IMG/VR virus record: IMGVR_UViG_2778261447_000015
Coordinates: 1 to 12,979 of that record
Length of the DNA stretch: 12,979 nt
Strand: one strand, 5' to 3'
Origin: a virus
Taxonomy: Duplodnaviria > Heunggongvirae > Uroviricota > Caudoviricetes
Below, piece by piece: positions 1,459 to 10,732 of the stretch (the first letter of the stretch is position 1; the number at the start of each line of letters is the position of its first letter). The notes below the pieces were generated by a model that had not been told where the DNA came from, did not search any database, and saw nothing but the letters and a program-made list of their open reading frames with translations. The translations under genes and the position numbers were made by a program.

Positions 1459-2619
1459 TTACCTCGCATTTAAGTAAACTACGTTCTCCTCTTGTGCCGT
1501 ATTTGTGTCATTGCGACTTATAATCGCATCGATTTTGCTCGCGTGCTCGGTGAGATGCCCGGCTGAAAGGTGGGCGTATCTTTGAACCATTTCGAGAGTT
1601 TCCCATCCTCCCATCTCTTTAAGTGCAAGAAGAGAGACACCGGACTGAACCAGCCAGCTTGCCCAGGTATGCCTCAGGTCATGGAAGCGGAAGTTGCTAA
1701 TGCCTGCTCGCTTTAACGCTCCCTTCCATGCCTTGTTGCTGTCGGTTCTCATCTTCCTTACCGCTGCTGTTTTTGTTCCGTCGCTTCGGTAGGCAGGTTT
1801 GGTGTGGACAAACACCCATCTCTTATGGAGACCCTGCTGTTTTCTTAATATCTGGCATGCGGTTTCGTTAAGAGGAACTCCGATCGCATTGCCAGCTTTT
1901 GTTTCATCAGGGTGCATCCATGCCATTTTCTTATCCAGATCGACCTGTGACCACTCAAGGTCTGTAACGTTGGAACGGCGAAGGCCTGTCGTGATTGCAA
2001 ACATGACCACAGGGAAGAAATGAGGAGCAATTTCTGCAAACAGGCGCTTCGATTCCTCCTCTGTAAGCCATCTGATTCGTCCATTCTTAACGCGTGGTGT
2101 TGATATTTTGGGCGCCCTGTCAAGCCATCCCCATTCAACAGCCATATTGAGAATAGCGCGAAGTATTGCCAGATGCCGCGTCTTCGTTCCTTTGCTTGCC
2201 AGCTTTGGTTTATACTCCGGCACTGGCTTGCCAAGCCGCAAACACCTGTCCCGGCTCATCTCCCAGTTCAGGCGATGGCGGCGGTTTTCCATCCCGTCTA
2301 CCGCCTCCATTATTTTTTCTGTTGTTATGTCAGAGAGAATGGTTTCTCTGAAGTGCAACATCCAGAACGATATAATGCTCTTGTCATCATCAATGGACTT
2401 CTTATCCGATTTCTCACGCAGCCACCGTATGCAGGCTTCCTTGAATAGCTTTTTCGGTGATTCTCCGAGATTTTTTACTCTCCACGCTTCTGCTTTCAGA
2501 CGATCGTGAAGTTCTTGCGCTTGCCTCTTGTCCGATGTTTCAAGAGAGCGTCTAACTCTTGATCCATCTGGCGCGACGAAATCGCAGTGCCACGTGCCAC
2601 CGCGTAGTTTGATTGACAT
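1459..2619 (-). CDS. int: phage tyrosine integrase (P22/lambda Int family)
   Basis: 386 aa with C-terminal catalytic region motifs (…FRFHDLRHTWASWLVQSGV…LKEMGGWETLEMVQRYAHL). ATG at 2619 is preceded by AGGAGG at 7 nt spacing. It sits next to the tRNA and resembles P22 Int by recall. Confidence 0.9.
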   Translation of the reverse strand: MSIKLRGGTWHCDFVAPDGSRVRRSLETSDKRQAQELHDRLKAEAWRVKNLGESPKKLFKEACIRWLREKSDKKSIDDDKSIISFWMLHFRETILSDITTEKIMEAVDGMENRRHRLNWEMSRDRCLRLGKPVPEYKPKLASKGTKTRHLAILRAILNMAVEWGWLDRAPKISTPRVKNGRIRWLTEEESKRLFAEIAPHFFPVVMFAITTGLRRSNVTDLEWSQVDLDKKMAWMHPDETKAGNAIGVPLNETACQILRKQQGLHKRWVFVHTKPAYRSDGTKTAAVRKMRTDSNKAWKGALKRAGISNFRFHDLRHTWASWLVQSGVSLLALKEMGGWETLEMVQRYAHLSAGHLTEHASKIDAIISRNDTNTAQEENVVYLNAR

Positions 2620-2843
2620 GCTTTAACCTCCTGCACATCAACCGCATTCACCGCGCTATTGTGTCTCACAGACTTAAGCGCCGCAATGCAGTCTGACTTG
2701 CAAATGCGATATGGGCTTTTAGGTTTATCTGGATTTATCTTTGCGGCCTGAAGTCGTCCACTTCGTATCCACTGCGTGATAGTTCCTTTGTCTACCTTCA
2801 GATACGACGCTGCTTCTTCACGAGTGAAGATTTCTTCTTCCAC
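2496..2843 (-). CDS. xis: excisionase (Xis), winged-helix DNA-binding
   Basis: 115 aa directly upstream of int and overlapping its 5' end, as in lambdoid xis-int. GTG start at 2843 is preceded by GGAGA at 6 nt. The N-terminus (TREEAASYLKVDKGTITQWIRSGRL) is excisionase-like. Confidence 0.7.
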   Translation of the reverse strand: MEEEIFTREEAASYLKVDKGTITQWIRSGRLQAAKINPDKPKSPYRICKSDCIAALKSVRHNSAVNAVDVQEVKACQSNYAVARGTAISSRQMDQELDALLKHRTRGKRKNFTIV

Positions 2844-2908
2844 CTGGAATCTCCATTTATTGAGTTGGTATTATTGCGGTAGGTCTGGATATCTTGATAA
2901 ATGAAAAT

Positions 2909-2927
2909 GCCTCATCGAGTGTGAGGC
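2909..2927 (-). terminator. candidate intrinsic terminator between the ea cassette and xis
   Basis: On the minus strand the stem is GCCTCA / TGAGGC with a 7 nt loop, followed by ATTTTCATTTAT. It lies immediately 3' of the stop of the 2931..3275 gene. Confidence 0.4.
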
Positions 2928-2930
2928 GGG

Positions 2931-3275
2931 TTAGTCCTTGCGTAGCTCGCTGATTATTCTGTAAGTCTCTGGTGCTTTGTTTCCGTGTATCTTCATTTCA
3001 GACTTCAACAGAGCAACGAGGGAATCCCATTCGTTGAGGATGCCTTTGAATGCCGGAACGCGCTTTGCAACCTTGCCGAATGAATCTCTGATTTCTGGAA
3101 TCTGCTCAACAAGTGCAACGCATCGCCGGAAATCTGCTGCGTCATAGGGTGCGTCGAAGTGATGACCATAGATATTCTTTTTCAGGCCACATGCGATTGA
3201 GGCAAGGGTTGCGCTACTGATGCCGACATCGCCAGTTGATTGCCATTTCAAAACCTTCATAGCCAAATCTGACAT
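2931..3275 (-). CDS. hypothetical phage protein (ea region)
   Basis: 114 aa ORF with ATG at 3275 preceded by GGAGA at 6 nt. No family recognised. Confidence 0.5.
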   Translation of the reverse strand: MSDLAMKVLKWQSTGDVGISSATLASIACGLKKNIYGHHFDAPYDAADFRRCVALVEQIPEIRDSFGKVAKRVPAFKGILNEWDSLVALLKSEMKIHGNKAPETYRIISELRKD

Positions 3276-3347
3276 TTCTTGTCTCCATAAAACAAAACCC
3301 GCCGTAGCGAGTTCAGATAAAAGAAATCCCCGCGAGTGCGAGGATTG

Positions 3348-3632
3348 TTATTCATTGCCGATATTCACCTTTATCGCGAACACCTTTACCGGTTTATCAC
3401 CGAAGTGCGGATGTGTGATTGTCTTGATTTCATATCCGTCATACGGAACATCAATTCTACGGCTGGAATCGTCGCGCTTCGGATATCCCTTTGTGATAAT
3501 CAGGCGGTCATACTCCCGGAACATAATTCGCTTATTCCAGTAGTCATTACACAGGCGATACTCTTCCGTTTTCTCTCCACGAATCATGGCATCGAAGTAT
3601 TCACCTTTGACGGAAAGTTGCAGGTTAGCCAC
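3348..3632 (-). CDS. hypothetical protein, possible ASCH/PUA-like fold
   Basis: Preferred start is GTG at 3632, preceded by AGGAGG at 6 nt, giving 94 aa. The longer ATG-3707 form would overlap the upstream gene by 83 bp. The pattern LQLSVKGEYFDAMIRGEKTEEYR ... VKVFAIKV resembles ASCH domains (recall only). Confidence 0.5.
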   Translation of the reverse strand: MANLQLSVKGEYFDAMIRGEKTEEYRLCNDYWNKRIMFREYDRLIITKGYPKRDDSSRRIDVPYDGYEIKTITHPHFGDKPVKVFAIKVNIGNE

Positions 3633-3843
3633 GGTTAACCTCCTGCGCCGTTTTGATGATTGCTGCCAGACAATTCTTGCAAGGAACAAGCAGCGCTCCC
3701 TGCTCAATGCTCAACAGCGCGTGCTGAGCATCCTGAAACAACCAGTCTGAAAATTGTGGCGCATGTCCGCACCACGTTTCTATTTCATGCTTTGCAAGTT
3801 TAACTCCCTCTCGATAGTCATATTTGATGATGTGCTTGCTCAC
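3625..3843 (-). CDS. hypothetical small protein with a Cys/His cluster
   Basis: 72 aa with GTG start at 3843 preceded by AGGAGG at 7 nt. The start overlaps the stop of the upstream gene in a GTGA arrangement. Contains C-x-H ... C-x-x-C. Confidence 0.5.
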   Translation of the reverse strand: MSKHIIKYDYREGVKLAKHEIETWCGHAPQFSDWLFQDAQHALLSIEQGALLVPCKNCLAAIIKTAQEVNRG

Positions 3844-4031
3844 GACTTCACCTCCTGTTGAGCAGAAACCTGATTTTTGAGTGATTCAGAAATATTCCTG
3901 CAATACCTAGCGGATTCATCGTCGAAAATGCTTTCGAAATACTCAGCAATCCAGCCGAACACAACAACCTGCTCATTGCTTGGATTTGCACTTTGATTGA
4001 AGGCGGTTATTAGTGATGCACTCATACTCAC
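3840..4031 (-). CDS. hypothetical small acidic protein
   Basis: 63 aa with AGGAGG upstream. The start is either GTG at 4031 (GTGA overlap with the upstream stop) or ATG at 4025. Confidence 0.45.
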   Translation of the reverse strand: MSMSASLITAFNQSANPSNEQVVVFGWIAEYFESIFDDESARYCRNISESLKNQVSAQQEVKS

Positions 4032-4822
4032 TTAACCTCCTGTTTTGGTGCTGCTGGAAGCGGCATCCAGTGGGTTATGATTACTTCGCGAGGATTGCAG
4101 TCGTCCTCTACTGGCTGCCACTCCGTCCATCCGTTGGTTTGATAGACAAAGAAATAAGCAGGAATGTAGCCTGGTTCATCTCCTTCAAAATATGTTCCCC
4201 AGCAAAGATACAAGCAATTGCTATCAGGCATTCGCTCACTACAGCTTATCCAACCATCCGGAGTTACCGGATAGTTGCGCATTGCGACCTTTAATGCCTC
4301 ATAGAAGCAACCTTTCAGATTGTTGAACTGACGCCCATTTAGCGGGCCGTGTTCAGTCAGCATGTTGTGTAATTTCCATGCCGCGTCGTTTACTTCGCTG
4401 GATGACAGGGGAGGCAACTTGTAAGTTTGGCTTACAGGTTCGGCACCCTGAAGCATGGCGGCGCGGCAGGCATTCCAGCCTCTCACCTCTGCAATAGCGG
4501 CAACAGCATCAACCGCGTACATGCTAAGAGGATTAGGCATTGGTTTTTCTTCCGGTACTACTGGCGCTGGAGGGGTGGCGTATACTTCAATAATCCCATT
4601 ATCAATAGGCCATTCCCCATCCTTGATGTAGTCACTTGTGCCGTCAACTTGCTGTTCTGCAATGTGGAATGCGCCAATAGGCTCTGCTTCCAGCGATGCC
4701 AACGCGATACGCGCCAGTTCCCTAAGATTTTCGCTATATGGTGAAGTATTATCACGGTTGATTACGTGATTAGCTGTATCTATGAGAACTTGCTTTTGTT
4801 CTTCTCTGGTCATAGTGGTCAT
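4028..4822 (-). CDS. two-domain phage protein with C-terminal DUF551-like domain
   Basis: 264 aa. The C-terminal ~70 aa (…WISCSERMPDSNCLYLCWG…ITHWMPLPAAPK) matches the DUF551 pattern common in lambdoid early-left regions (recall). The N-terminal ~190 aa is unassigned. Confidence 0.7.
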   Translation of the reverse strand: MTTMTREEQKQVLIDTANHVINRDNTSPYSENLRELARIALASLEAEPIGAFHIAEQQVDGTSDYIKDGEWPIDNGIIEVYATPPAPVVPEEKPMPNPLSMYAVDAVAAIAEVRGWNACRAAMLQGAEPVSQTYKLPPLSSSEVNDAAWKLHNMLTEHGPLNGRQFNNLKGCFYEALKVAMRNYPVTPDGWISCSERMPDSNCLYLCWGTYFEGDEPGYIPAYFFVYQTNGWTEWQPVEDDCNPREVIITHWMPLPAAPKQEVK

Positions 4823-4823
4823 A

Positions 4824-5123
4824 TCACATCACCCTGAAGCCGTTGCATTTACGTAAGAAATCGCAGATATAGCCCTTCATTTTTTCATGCCAATCTCGAT
4901 CATTCCCATTGCACCAACCATCAGGTGGAGTCCAGTTTTCTATCAGAGCAGCCATTTTCTTTGCTTTCGCCGGAGTAGCTGTTGCGGTATCGCAGTAATG
5001 ACGAGTGTCAACCAACGCATCCATACCATCGATATCAAGTACGCAAAACCATGTGTGATTCGGCATTCCAACAGATGGTATTTGTTGCCCACGTCGACGT
5101 TTATCAATAAGACATACACTCAC
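4824..5123 (-). CDS. hypothetical Cys-rich phage protein
   Basis: 99 aa with GTG start at 5123 preceded by AAGGAGG at 6 nt. Six cysteines. Confidence 0.5.
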
Positions 5124-5245
5124 TGCTTGCCTCCTTTACGCCACATCGCATTCAGATATTTGTTGTCATTAACAGAACCGAAACTCTTTCTTTTAAGCAA
5201 TTCCTCTCTCGATGGCATTGGCTTTACGCGTTGGCGAATAATCAT
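5120..5245 (-). CDS. possible 41 aa small ORF, translationally coupled to the downstream gene
   Basis: ATG at 5245 to TGA at 5120-5122; the stop overlaps the GTG start of the 4824..5123 gene (GTGA). The RBS is weak, and the ORF is below the ORF-track length cutoff. Confidence 0.2.
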
Positions 5246-5297
5246 TTCTGCCGGAAGAATGCCGGGATTGTATGCAAGTCATCTCATGGTAAATTCC

Positions 5298-5594
5298 TCA
5301 GTCATTACTGATAGCGCCATAGCGTGAGCGGTAATTACGCAGGCGCGGGTCGATATATTCAGGGAAGTGGGTATATGTGGCTTTGCGGAATGGTCGGATT
5401 GATGTCTGGTAAATTCGCTCGTGTTCTTCTTTCTCTGCAAGCCATATACAATGGCGAAATTCCTTTTCCTCTTTCGTTTCCTGCGGTAGCGACATTATCA
5501 GGTCGTAGTTTTTTCTGAATTTATCCAGCACCTCCGATACGGAATTGCCGGAACAGCGGCGCGGGTCATCCGCACCATACAGAGGCGCTGGCAT
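5298..5594 (-). CDS. hypothetical phage protein
   Basis: 98 aa with ATG at 5594 preceded by AGGAGG at 6 nt. It lies immediately downstream of ssb. Confidence 0.5.
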   Translation of the reverse strand: MPAPLYGADDPRRCSGNSVSEVLDKFRKNYDLIMSLPQETKEEKEFRHCIWLAEKEEHERIYQTSIRPFRKATYTHFPEYIDPRLRNYRSRYGAISND

Positions 5595-5607
5595 GATTTC
5601 CTCCTGA

Positions 5608-6123
5608 TTAAATTGCGTGAATAGCGTGACGAGGGAAGGGGAGAGTTACTGGCGCAAATGGTATATCGTCGTCAAACTCCATAGGTGGTTCGCTGTGATT
5701 TCCCTGCTGCTGAGGTTGCTGTCTTTGTTGCTGACCGTTATTTCGCTGAGGTGAAGACTGTTCATTGCCTCCTTGCTTGCCACCAAGCATTTGCATGGTT
5801 CCACCAACGCCCACGATGACTTCGGTAGTGAACCGATCCTGTCCGCTTTGATCCTGCCATTTTCTTGTCCGCAATTTTCCTTCAAGATAAACCTCAGAGC
5901 CTTTTCGCAGATATTCGCTGGCAATTTCTGCCAGTTTCCCGCTCATTACCACGCGGTGCCACTCCGTCTGCTCCTTTTGCTCTCCAGTTTGCTTATCACG
6001 CCATTGTTCTGACGTAGCAACTGTAAGGTTTGCAAATGCCGTTCCTGATGGTGAATATCTGATTTCTGGATCATGCCCAAGGCGACCAATAATGATCACC
6101 TTATTTACGCCTCTGCTTGCCAT
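5608..6123 (-). CDS. ssb: single-stranded DNA-binding protein (SSB) with a 15 aa extension after the DDDIPF motif
   Basis: 171 aa with an OB-fold N-terminus ([18 protein letters not shown]…WHRVV), a Gly/Gln-rich linker and the acidic motif MEFDDDIPF. The ORF continues for 15 more residues ([15 protein letters not shown]) before TAA. Confidence 0.85.
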
Positions 6124-6831
6124 TTATGCCGCCTGTTTTAGCTCGTTAACTCTGATGTTCATTACCTGAACGCATTTAGCCTGCGCCTCCTCGTTTCCAG
6201 CCATTAATTGCCAGTCACGCTGATAACGCTCGATGAGTTTTTTCTTGTCAGTTTCTGTTGACGCATAATCGCTGAAGTCTTTCAGGATTTGTTCGCAGTC
6301 AACCGATGGAGATTTCTGGTTGGTATTTTCTGGTGATGGTTTGTTATCTGATGCTGGGATTGCCCATCCCGGCAGCGATGGAGGGAGCCAGTAAAATCCT
6401 GTTCCATCCTTCAGTTTTGCCCTGTGCCACCCCTGCTTTTTATCGAGAGATGTTTGTGCGAAACCTTCCTCAAGGTTATACAGATACCGACCGATTCCCC
6501 ACTGAACGGCAGCGCGCTTCATTGCACCGGAACGACCACCTTTGACGGCTTCTACCTGCGTGTTTTCAGCAGCATCCCATTTGGTTACCCATTCGGAATC
6601 AATCTTTATTGATATGCCGCATTCAACGCCGCCGTTGTTGGGAATATCGCGGTATTCATTGCGCCATCCTGCTTTGCCGCAAACATCGTCCAGGCGTTTC
6701 ATGATTGCCCGGTTCGTGACATAAGCCAGCACCATAGCCCACACTTTGCCATCGCGTGTTTTACCGCTTTGCTGTATTCGCCATTCGATATCTTCAGGGC
6801 TGAATGGCTCATCGAATTTATTCAAATCCAT
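6124..6831 (-). CDS. Rad52-family single-strand annealing protein (recombinase)
   Basis: 235 aa in the bet/erf position, with its stop adjacent to the ssb start. The core (…GKAGWRNEY…GGVECGISIKID…KRAAVQWGIGRYLYN) resembles Rad52/Sak-type annealases (recall). Confidence 0.7.
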   Translation of the reverse strand: MDLNKFDEPFSPEDIEWRIQQSGKTRDGKVWAMVLAYVTNRAIMKRLDDVCGKAGWRNEYRDIPNNGGVECGISIKIDSEWVTKWDAAENTQVEAVKGGRSGAMKRAAVQWGIGRYLYNLEEGFAQTSLDKKQGWHRAKLKDGTGFYWLPPSLPGWAIPASDNKPSPENTNQKSPSVDCEQILKDFSDYASTETDKKKLIERYQRDWQLMAGNEEAQAKCVQVMNIRVNELKQAA

Positions 6832-8751: not shown

Positions 8752-9057
8752 TCATCCCTCATACAGTGGTTTGCTGCCTAATTTCATTTTCTGGCGACCA
8801 ACACAAGTCACACCCATTTCACTGCGTGGCTTGCGGTAGTAAATACGGTTCTGTTTACGCTCGACTTCTTCTGCCTTCTTGCAGCGAAGGCTTCCGAGTG
8901 ATGCTGCTTTATCTGCTCTGACGCAACCAGAGAGCTTTAGCTCAATTTTTCGCGCCAGTCGCTGCTCTTGCATTGCCTGTTCACGTTGAGCCTGTCTGCG
9001 TGCTCTGCGGCGATTTCTGGCGTTATCGTCAGCCAGATATGTAATTACTACTGTCAT
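8752..9057 (-). CDS. N: antitermination protein N
   Basis: 101 aa from ATG 9057 preceded by GGAGG at 5 nt. It has an N-terminal Arg-rich motif (DNARNRRRARRQAQ). The C-terminus (RKQNRIYYRKPRSEMGVTCVGRQKMKLGSKPL) parallels lambda N (RKNQRTWYSKPGERGITCSGRQKIKGKSIPL, recall). It is the first gene downstream of PL/nutL. Confidence 0.85.
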   Translation of the reverse strand: MTVVITYLADDNARNRRRARRQAQREQAMQEQRLARKIELKLSGCVRADKAASLGSLRCKKAEEVERKQNRIYYRKPRSEMGVTCVGRQKMKLGSKPLYEG

Positions 9058-9368
9058 GTTGACCTCCGATGAAACAACTTTGGAATTGATAGTGATTGCA
9101 AAGTGGTTTCTGGCCCCTCGAACTGAGGGGCAGAAAGAGCATCTCGCCACCTAATAGGTCGATGCTCGGATCGAGAGATTTAATTAACCTCGGTTTTGAA
9201 GTTATGCATTCACATAAATCCTCCTGTTGCATGTGCAGCATTGGCTGTGTTTGGCAGCTGCATTTCGCCTATGGAATTGACTTTGGCGGTGACGCGCCGG
9301 GTGCTTATCTTCAGGTTGCCGTCGTGCAGCTGCACTTCACGTCACCCCAAAGCCAACTACTCTTTGGT

Positions 9369-9629: not shown

Positions 9630-9998
9630 TTAGTCAGCGAAGGTTAAGACGAGAATTACCTTAATGATGTCTGCTACAACAGACACGGCCATAGATAAAC
9701 CAAAGACGATCCAAGCCATAGAGATGTCTTCACTACCATCGTATAGAGTTCCGTAATCACTGGTGTAAGGCGTAAATGTCGCGCCTTGATACAATAGGTA
9801 TAAGCTTGATCCATAGAGGATAAATGCAGATATCCCTTGTATTGCCATGATCACCAGAATCATGAAACGAGCTGATCTATGCGCCCAAGCCTGGCTTATT
9901 TTTTCTGATAGAGATTTCGCAATAAAAGCATGCGCTAAGCCGTAAATTGTTGAGATTGCCAACATCCCCAAAAAGCTTGCTATAGCGGTTCCAACCAT
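9630..9998 (-). CDS. small integral membrane protein (three predicted TM helices) downstream of cI
   Basis: 122 aa from ATG 9998 preceded by AAGGGG at 5 nt; the longer ORF form would start with TTG at 10019. Three hydrophobic ~25 aa segments are separated by a basic loop (KSLSEKISQAWAHRSAR) and an acidic Tyr-rich loop. Same strand as cI, 17 nt after its stop. Confidence 0.55.
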   Translation of the reverse strand: MVGTAIASFLGMLAISTIYGLAHAFIAKSLSEKISQAWAHRSARFMILVIMAIQGISAFILYGSSLYLLYQGATFTPYTSDYGTLYDGSEDISMAWIVFGLSMAVSVVADIIKVILVLTFAD

Positions 9999-10015
9999 AA
10001 TCGCCCCTTGCGTGA

Positions 10016-10732
10016 TCAAACCAGCCTTAGTTTTGTCTCAATTGCAACGCCTATAATCTTGCAGTTTCCATTGATTGGCACGAGAGGCCATGCAGGATTA
10101 AGTCCCTTGAGGTATTTATTTCCGCCGTCGATTATCAGCTTCTTGAATGTTGCTTCGTTAGAGTCAGAAAGTTTTGCTATGACCAAGCTGCCGTTGATCG
10201 CCTCCCTTCCGGTATCGAAAAGAACGAATGTTCCCTCTGGAATGCTTAACCCAACCGGTGCCGTCATTGAATCACCTTCCACTTTAAGCCAGAACGCATT
10301 ACCTTGAATATGCGCGTCAGACTCAAGCCAAACATCTATGTCTTTAATGGTGTATGGTTCGCATGCTTCACACCACGAGCCAGCCTGGATACTGCTTAAC
10401 ACCGGATACCTCTTTCCTGCTCTGTATTCCCCTGCATACCTTACGTTGGCATCGCTCTTAAGGCTTTCTGCCTGTTCTGCAACCTTGGCAGCAATTGACT
10501 GGCTAAAATCAGCAATTGAGACTTGCAACAATCGTGCAAAACCAGATGCAACCTCAACGTTTAGCGCGTTTCTGCCATTAAGATAATGCCCTACCGCTCC
10601 TTGGGTGATACCCAGTTCATCAGCGATTGAGTATTGGGTTATTCCCAATTCTTTCTTTTTTGACTCATACAAAGCCTTAAGCCGCTTAGCGTCTTCGAGC
10701 TGTTCTGTCGTCAGTGATTTTTTATTTTCCAT
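10016..10732 (-). CDS. cI: CI repressor (HTH N-terminal domain, S24 LexA-like C-terminal domain)
   Basis: 238 aa with lambda-CI-like architecture (…LTTEQLEDAKRLKALYESKKKELGITQ…, C-terminal …FWLKVEGDSMTAP… and …FKKLI…). No Shine-Dalgarno precedes the ATG, consistent with a leaderless PRM transcript. Divergent from cro. Confidence 0.9.
   Translation of the reverse strand: MENKKSLTTEQLEDAKRLKALYESKKKELGITQYSIADELGITQGAVGHYLNGRNALNVEVASGFARLLQVSIADFSQSIAAKVAEQAESLKSDANVRYAGEYRAGKRYPVLSSIQAGSWCEACEPYTIKDIDVWLESDAHIQGNAFWLKVEGDSMTAPVGLSIPEGTFVLFDTGREAINGSLVIAKLSDSNEATFKKLIIDGGNKYLKGLNPAWPLVPINGNCKIIGVAIETKLRLV

Follow-up and report, generated by a model that had tools for sequence, protein, structure and literature searches.

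In phage P22 the genes preceding xis and int in the early-left operon form the so-called ea region (abc2, orf56, eaE, eaF, eaD, eaI, eaA, eaG and eaC), and, as in the locus described here, most of their functions are unknown (PMC8022706). A positional equivalent in lambda and the Shiga toxin-encoding (Stx) phages is the exo-xis region (orf60a, orf63, orf61, orf73, ea22 and ea8.5), a mosaic of small, non-essential early genes. We have analyzed a comparable block of eight minus-strand genes, found between xis and ssb at positions 2931-5594 of a stretch of viral DNA of 12,979 nucleotides (IMG/VR record IMGVR_UViG_2778261447_000015; below, the window). The genes are denoted A to H, counted from the xis side. 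With a probability of about 0.8 the block constitutes the distal, non-essential accessory segment of an early-left (pL) operon, equivalent in position to the ea region of P22 and the exo-xis region of lambda. In composition it combines known modules in a new way: one characterized gene (H, which is abc2), one pseudogene (G), one probable ASCH enzyme (B) and five catalogued genes of unknown function (A, C, D, E and F).

The assignment of the block to the distal end of the early-left operon follows from its genomic context. At the start of the window lie proA (1-1254) and the tRNA-Thr(CGU) gene thrW (1369-1444), both 100% identical to E. coli sequences; the tRNA was the sole match in an Rfam scan of the window. 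Directly adjoining the tRNA lies the tyrosine integrase gene int (1459-2619, minus strand), which overlaps the excisionase gene xis (2496-2843, minus; phrog_2907, E = 7e-52, and HTH_17; 41% identity to P22 Xis by tblastn) by 124 nucleotides, the same arrangement as in P22. On the other side of the block the recombination module is found, with ssb (5608-6123, minus) and a gene for a Rad52/Erf-like annealing protein (6124-6831, minus), followed by kil and cIII (minus), an N-like antiterminator gene (8752-9150, minus; phrog_271, E = 4e-39) and a cI-like repressor gene (10016-10732, minus). A pL-like promoter (9484-9456, minus; TTTACA-17-TATTCT in the promoter scan) is flanked by palindromic operator-like repeats (AAATACCTTGGGTATTT). 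Downstream of it, a nutL boxA, GCTCTTTAACA (9409-9399, minus), could be read directly from the sequence, and the boxB-like hairpin 3' of it (9386-9369, minus) makes this look like an apparently complete nutL site. Judged by these features the replicon is a lambdoid prophage with P22-, Sf6- and mEp213-like traits, integrated at thrW of E. coli.

The run of short minus-strand genes that the original prediction had drawn from the letters alone proved to be real. Seven intact open reading frames (ORFs) are present in the block (A, B, C, D, E, F and H), each with a PHROG match at an E-value between 1e-25 and 1e-56. Moreover, in a codon-position test that covered A, B, C, D, F, G and H, the variable sites among related copies at positions 1/2/3 numbered 20/13/46 for A, 27/21/70 for B, 26/22/65 for C, 9/10/26 for F, 26/19/42 for G and 38/30/65 for H. 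As the variation concentrates at third codon positions, A, B, C, F, G and H behave as real coding genes and not as chance ORFs; for D the counts (3/2/4) were too few to judge. The genes are tightly packed. In the order of transcription, from H to A, the junctions measure +10, -4, +1, +2, -4, -8 and +72 nucleotides, so that six of the seven are at most 10 nucleotides long and three are overlaps (GTGA, GTGA and 8 nucleotides). Beyond the family catalogues little was recovered: A to H had no match in NCBIfam, single-sequence searches of the PDB with A, B, E and F gave nothing significant, and neither did PDB searches with four family profiles, one of which had been inflated to 361 positions by multi-domain members and was then trimmed.

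The comparison with related loci revealed that each gene is an exchangeable module, the order being kept while the content is shuffled. The loci compared, over 120 from IMG/VR, differ in membership, but those genes that are present are nearly always arranged as H > G > (F) > E-type > (D > C) > B > (A) > xis, a single locus (L124) being the exception. The complete combination was not recovered elsewhere. None of the phages or complete E. coli genomes searched covered the region 2400-6200 for 80% or more in one place; phages reached 52% at best and E. coli genomes 66%. Single members, on the other hand, can be common: among 5426 complete E. coli genomes A was present in 945 and B in 1559 (29%), and the D-C pair in 42. 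The D-C-B block also occurs in a prophage with a lambda-type int, a lambda att site and a RecT recombinase. Thus, the description of the region as a variable accessory zone of a lambdoid early-left operon was borne out, and the comparison with the regions of relatives, which had been proposed as a check, returned variable content in a conserved order. A likely site for the exchange of modules is the 11-mer CAGGAGGTKAA, which contains the Shine-Dalgarno sequence. It occurs four times on the minus strand (0 expected), each time at a gene start, namely before int (2623-2633), B (3635-3645), C (3847-3857) and D (4032-4042), and it is similar to what the annotation of Sf6 calls "boundary sequences". 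The 11-mer also accounts for the recurrence of ...QEVK or ...QEVNRG at the ends of the proteins encoded upstream.

P22 is among the closest relatives, together with Sf6, HK620, mEp213 and HK022. Its ea region has the same position in the operon, and the two phages have in common the thrW-type int/xis, Abc2 (93% identity), orf56 (71%) and the combination of an EaA N-terminus with a C-terminal DUF551 domain. In contrast, P22 lacks a counterpart (at E <= 1e-3) of A, B, C, D and F, the middle of E is unlike EaA, and where P22 has abc1 and erf the prophage has ssb and a Rad52-like protein instead. Other phages supply further single genes. In Sf6, gp22 corresponds to F (96% identity), gp23 to G and gp25 to H, and in mEp213, gp26 corresponds to A (96%), gp30 to C (86%) and gp31 to D (100%). 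However, although genes 19-25 of Sf6, the hka genes of HK620 and the early-left genes of mEp213 and HK022 share single genes with the block, none of these phages has the whole combination.

The distal part of the operon seems to be poor in internal promoters: a scan of both strands of 2400-6200 found no sigma-70-like site, against 5.5 +/- 2.6 expected from shuffled sequences. Terminator-like hairpins are present both inside the block and upstream of it. Considering the lack of an internal promoter-like site and the complete pL-nutL-N module upstream, the block is most likely expressed by N-antiterminated read-through from pL and not autonomously. Transcription would start at pL and would become resistant to termination at nutL via the N-like protein. 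The transcript would then pass kil and cIII, the gene of the Rad52-like annealing protein, ssb and abc2 before it enters the rest of the block, and the products would be made only after infection or induction and not from the repressed prophage. The tandem terminators after B and the one after A would halt transcripts that are not antiterminated before they reach xis and int. In addition, the close spacing of six of the seven junctions suggests that translation is probably coupled. Two points weigh against this picture, as the promoter scan detects the sigma-70 consensus only, and is blind to weak or activator-dependent promoters such as the aI and pI types of P22, and the coupling is read from gene spacing alone.

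The hairpins bear on the standing of gene A (2931-3275, minus), which encodes a basic protein of 114 residues of the HK022 p30/mEp213 gp26 type (phrog_1229, E = 3e-50). The hairpin between A and xis (2909-2927, minus; six pairs and a T-rich tail), already pointed out in the original prediction, was found by the terminator scan. The same scan yielded a feature that had gone unnoticed, two terminator-like hairpins in tandem, both with a U-rich tail, between B and A (3295-3346, minus), for which the RNA fold of 3346-3295 has an energy of -26.4 kcal/mol (z = -4.16). With terminator-like hairpins on both sides, A is the only gene that is set apart by a spacer of 72 nucleotides, and it adjoins xis in prophages with differing upstream genes; it might therefore be regarded as an autonomous moron, a lysogenic-conversion gene transcribed separately from the prophage. 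We consider this quite improbable, as the crude scan gave no sigma-70 consensus promoter upstream of A, the gene is oriented in the same way as the operon, and the spacer follows B even where A is absent or another gene intervenes. More specifically, the length from annotated coordinates (the spacer sequence itself was not part of the comparison) is 72 bp in E. coli HZ13, PSS-04 and ES5 too, regardless of the next gene. Since the spacer follows B also without A, the tandem hairpins belong to the B module and not to A, and read-through from pL remains the preferred account for A as well. The family of A is restricted to the Enterobacteriaceae (62 clusters), and neither sequence nor profile searches of the PDB gave a match for it. 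Many of its database entries are chimeras, in which the first 50-65% of A runs on into a fragment of Erf, Kil, Ea22 or a dATP/dGTP pyrophosphohydrolase, which suggests that the gene contains a point at which recombination or deletion has repeatedly occurred.

At the other end of the block, gene H (5298-5594, minus) could be identified with confidence. Its product of 98 residues matches PF11043, the family of anti-RecBCD protein 2, over residues 1-98 and profile positions 1-97 (E = 2.5e-62; 207.5 bits against a cut-off of 25), as well as phrog_656 (E = 4e-56). It aligns over its full length, at 93% identity, with P22 Abc2 as solved on RecBCD (PDB 8B1T/8B1U; chain 8b1t_A), and tblastn against P22 abc2 gave the same figure. 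Pro68, the residue that engages PpiB (PMC9836394), is conserved (...TSIRPFRK...). On these sequence criteria H is Abc2, and it belongs functionally with the adjoining ssb/annealing module rather than with the genes of unknown function. Like its P22 counterpart it neighbors a phage annealing protein; in contrast to P22, its partner recombinase has an N-terminal domain of the Rad52 type and is Erf-like only in its C-terminal 79 residues, and abc1 is lacking. This Erf-like tail (6124-6360, minus) shares 63% identity with the corresponding end of P22 Erf, and cooperation with Abc2, SSB or RecBCD might be its task.

The SSB protein of the prophage is unusual. It has 171 residues, and the chain continues for 15 residues (5611-5655, minus) beyond the canonical C-terminal tip ...DDDIPF; the last 14 of these are the very residues with which the Sf6 gp26 HNH endonuclease ends. 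It seems that a deletion has joined ssb to the end of a gp26-like gene and has thereby buried the partner-binding tip. In E. coli ZF8-1, too, the gene annotated as ssb encodes this form of 171 residues.

The original prediction had placed a gap of 174 bp (5124-5297) in front of the ssb side of the block. In fact this stretch is occupied by gene G (5120-5287, minus), a DUF2737 gene of the P22 orf56/Sf6 gp23 type that carries a premature TGA. The match to PF10930 covers profile positions 15-51 (E = 5.9e-18; 64.9 bits against a cut-off of 25), the identity to P22 orf56 is 71% (tblastn), and further homologues are Sf6 gp23 and HK97 gp38. An alignment with two intact copies indicated that codon 3 (5279-5281) has changed from GGA to TGA by a single G-to-T substitution, and in all 70 other copies from the fetched loci this codon specifies glycine (GGA, GGT or GGG). 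Thus, G is clearly a member of the family by profile, but the frame of about 54 residues is no longer intact owing to the TGA, and an ORF of 41 residues starting at Met15 (5120-5245) is left. According to the sequence G is inactivated or truncated by the nonsense codon, unless the TGA is due to an error in sequencing and not to mutation; both are conceivable. The GTG start codon of F overlaps the stop codon of G (GTGA); as F also has a strong Shine-Dalgarno sequence of its own, it is probably independent of G.

Together with the fusion of ssb to the tail of a deleted neighbor and the many truncated or chimeric copies of A in the databases, the nonsense codon in G might be taken to mean that the block is a decaying remnant, i.e. 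non-functional DNA of a defective prophage. Such a state is very improbable: all genes but one of the eight are intact and span the full length of their family profiles, the families of A, B, C, F, G and H are under purifying selection as judged by the third-position variation, and the window contains intact genes for regulation and recombination. A functional accessory segment of the early-left operon is therefore clearly preferred.

Gene F (4824-5123, minus) encodes a DUF7739 protein of 99 residues (PF24881, E = 8e-21; 74.9 bits against a cut-off of 27; phrog_1239) that is 96% identical to Sf6 gp22. It was one of two proteins that had been labeled Cys-rich, the other being C, and only for C did the label hold. 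Across 21 homologues of F only C93 of the six cysteines is invariant, so the label is without functional meaning for this protein, and zinc binding was rejected because five of the six are not conserved. The AlphaFold2 model of F is a confident one, with a mean predicted local distance difference test (pLDDT) score of 82.8. Its best match in a fold search of the PDB was not meaningful (E = 0.037, template modeling (TM) score 0.39), the resemblance to the DNA mimic DMP12 was not significant (TM score 0.49, E = 2.4), and the search of BFVD returned only uncharacterized viral proteins. The computed isoelectric point (pI) makes F a basic protein. Literature searches on DUF2737, DUF7739 and EaA/EaD did not return functional data.

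In C (3625-3843, minus; 72 residues; phrog_4090, E = 3e-44) the cysteines do form a conserved pattern, C25-x-H27 ... C55-x2-C58, in which, among 29 distinct variants, C25, C55 and C58 are invariant and H27 is present in 27. From this pattern we infer that C is a small zinc-binding protein with a putative zinc site. The adjoining gene D (3840-4025, minus) encodes an acidic protein of 61 residues with a pI of 4.4 (phrog_23654, E = 7e-47). The phrog_23654 alignment starts at residue 3 of an ORF of 63 residues, with an alternative GTG start at 4031, and the NCBI annotation pipeline PGAP calls a gene of 186 bp in ES5. D is 98-100% identical in every locus that carries it (L033, L087, L100, L106, L111, L113 and others), and the C gene next to it varies between 83 and 99% across these loci; the uniformity of D is unusual for the region.

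The largest protein of the block is E (4028-4822, minus), an EaA-type mosaic protein of 264 residues. Its leader is variable, the middle contains conserved blocks, and the protein ends in a DUF551 domain with a hypervariable core. The N- and C-termini match P22 EaA, and residues 190-260 match all 68 positions of the DUF551 profile PF04448 (E = 7e-14; 52.8 bits against a cut-off of 22). The two-domain character that had been proposed for this protein gained support, as the two halves of E are encoded by two separate, adjoining genes in E. coli HZ13. The family is very large, with at least 7989 clusters at 90% identity, and the best full-length match to E is 82% identical. Within the family both the leader (residues 1-34) and the DUF551 core (residues 200-250; 2.07 bits of entropy) are hypervariable, and the edges of the DUF551 domain are near-invariant (0.16 bits for residues 185-199 and 0.45 bits for residues 251-259). 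We infer from this distribution that E is an EaA-type scaffold, in which the hypervariable DUF551 core may serve as a diversifying binding surface. Against this stands that the AlphaFold2 model of E failed (pLDDT 47), which makes a fold search with the model meaningless.

E also provides a link to a second view of the block, in which its genes tune the decision between lysis and lysogeny. In the exo-xis region of lambda and Stx phages Ea22 has been reported to be pro-lysogenic and orf60a, orf61 and orf63 to be pro-lytic (PMC3824215, PMC7093339, PMC10834534). The block is found at the same operon position, between the recombination genes and xis. Moreover, residues 85-143 of E, a block of 59 residues, are 41% identical to Sf6 gp21, an Ead/Ea22-like protein, and DUF551 is present in some Ea22 variants of Stx phages (Ea22_V2) as well as in YfdS. 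Nevertheless, this view is an unlikely one. No ORF of the block matched any exo-xis protein in a tblastn search against lambda 25000-36000 (E <= 1e-3), and because sequence homology is lacking the lambda phenotypes cannot be transferred to the block. E itself is unlike lambda Ea22, of which it was rejected as a homologue (BLASTP E = 3.3), and had no match to the Pfam family Ead_Ea22 (PF13935) at E <= 0.1, which makes the resemblance positional only. The equivalence with the exo-xis region that we favor is thus one of position in the operon and of accessory character.

A third view holds that the block is a counter-defense or defense island, in which one or more of the genes A to F inhibit host immunity or exclude superinfection. 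Many DNA-mimic anti-restriction proteins are small and acidic, and D has both properties. Abc2 itself targets RecBCD, which is an immunity hub, and the hypervariable DUF551 core of E between its near-invariant edges, in a family of at least 7989 clusters, could reflect an arms race, the core being, as a weaker possibility, a diversifying interface in a conflict with a host sensor. The ASCH likeness of B can be counted here as well, since ASCH/PUA-like domains are described as recognizing modified bases (PMC7641849). However, none of the eight proteins matched a family of PADLOC-DB 2.0 at E <= 0.1, and besides Abc2 the searches of NCBIfam, Pfam and PHROGs gave no anti-defense family. The likeness of F to DMP12 is not significant and F is basic, and the hypervariability of E may equally be explained by plain modular recombination at conserved edges. 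A role in defense thus remains a tentative option, less probable than an ordinary accessory segment of the early-left operon, though easier to accept than the tuning of lysogeny. Together with the lack of internal promoter-like sites and the pL-nutL-N module upstream, the absence of PADLOC matches also goes against the moron and defense character with which the original prediction had colored the region. Its statement that none of the products can be assigned a function from sequence no longer applies to H, which is Abc2, nor entirely to B, for which an ASCH assignment can tentatively be made. That most products lack a demonstrated function is supported: no activity could be assigned to A, D and F, and the functions of A, C, D, E and F are guesses, which counts against any detailed functional reading of the block. 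Only one of the eight genes belongs to a well-characterized family; the original prediction would have fallen had all of them done so.

Gene B (3348-3632, minus; GTG start; phrog_625, E = 3e-51) encodes a protein of 94 residues that had been called ASCH-like. The call is supported by the motif G19-E-K21-T-E-E24-Y-R26, which corresponds to the ASCH octapeptide GxKxxExR of the alpha1-beta2 region, and more specifically to its GKER type; human EOLA1 carries the same residues at the same numbers (G19, K21, E24 and R26; PMC6803910). An exhaustive HMMER search delimited a family of 768 cluster representatives. Among 40 relatives with identities as low as 40%, K21, R26, W32 and G66 do not vary, and at least 90% of these sequences share G19, E24, H74 and some further residues. 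Furthermore, B is similar in size to the ASCH enzymes E. coli YqfB, T. thermophilus TthASCH and human EOLA1 (about 95-120 residues), and identical copies of B have been named "ASCH domain-containing protein" by PGAP.

Several results count against the assignment of B to this fold. The match to the Pfam family ASCH (PF04266) covers residues 6-28 and stays below the cut-off (E = 0.047; 14.8 against 21.2 bits), of 50 relatives only four reach E <= 0.01 against ASCH and three against DUF3850, the profile of 40 relatives did not retrieve an ASCH chain from the PDB even at E <= 10, and an alignment of this profile with YqfB by hhalign was confined to a motif of 16 residues, with a probability of 0.7%. 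Outside the motif no significant sequence similarity of B to the ASCH enzymes was obtained, and the conserved residues W32, G49-Y50-P51, G66, H74 and F77 form a signature of the B family itself. Nevertheless, the invariance of the motif makes it probable that B is a divergent member of the ASCH fold, with both fold and activity as predictions. If so, B is most likely an enzyme or a binding protein for a modified cytosine or RNA substrate. A far more specific proposal can be formulated from the finding that the Lys and Glu of the GKER type are required for the removal of N4-acetylcytidine (ac4C) from tRNA (bioRxiv 10.64898/2026.02.27.708502). According to this proposal B is a phage enzyme of the GKER-type ASCH class that is produced soon after infection or induction and strips ac4C from host tRNA or hydrolyzes another N4-acylated or modified cytosine. 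The target would be ac4C34 of the elongator tRNA-Met, and the effect would be a reprogrammed translation or the disarming of a modification-dependent host function. We regard this proposal as rather improbable in its specifics.

Domain partners of the B family were considered as an additional source of information, and were rejected as uninformative as only two sub-threshold matches were obtained (RVT_1 and SpoU_methylas_C). Antisense to B a plus-strand ORF of 100 residues (3336-3638) matches phrog_20945 (E = 1e-64). It was rejected as a gene because stop codons interrupt it in 11 of 64 near-identical variants, and because it is antisense to the B frame, which is under purifying selection; phrog_20945 appears to have been built from mis-called shadow ORFs. 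Elsewhere in the window, an ORF of 129 residues (9630-10019, minus; phrog_6534) lies directly downstream of the cI-like repressor gene. By its location at the rex position of lambda it is a candidate for an exclusion or conversion gene expressed from the prophage.

The block is in the first place a further rearrangement of modules already catalogued, in that variable zone of the lambdoid phages which is known best, and as such little follows from it. Its annotation has nevertheless been corrected in three respects: Abc2 has been recognized, the supposed gap contains a DUF2737 pseudogene, and there is one conserved motif of a metal-binding type, not two. Moreover, the analysis points to two very common genes of E. 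coli prophages with testable biology, B, present in 1559 of the 5426 genomes, and the EaA/DUF551 family with its at least 7989 clusters. The ASCH-motif protein B is the most testable lead in the block. Should the proposal for B be true, it would represent a widespread and unrecognized phage function in RNA demodification, carried by about 29% of the complete E. coli genomes, and if B indeed demodifies RNA or nucleosides this would constitute a new kind of early phage function.

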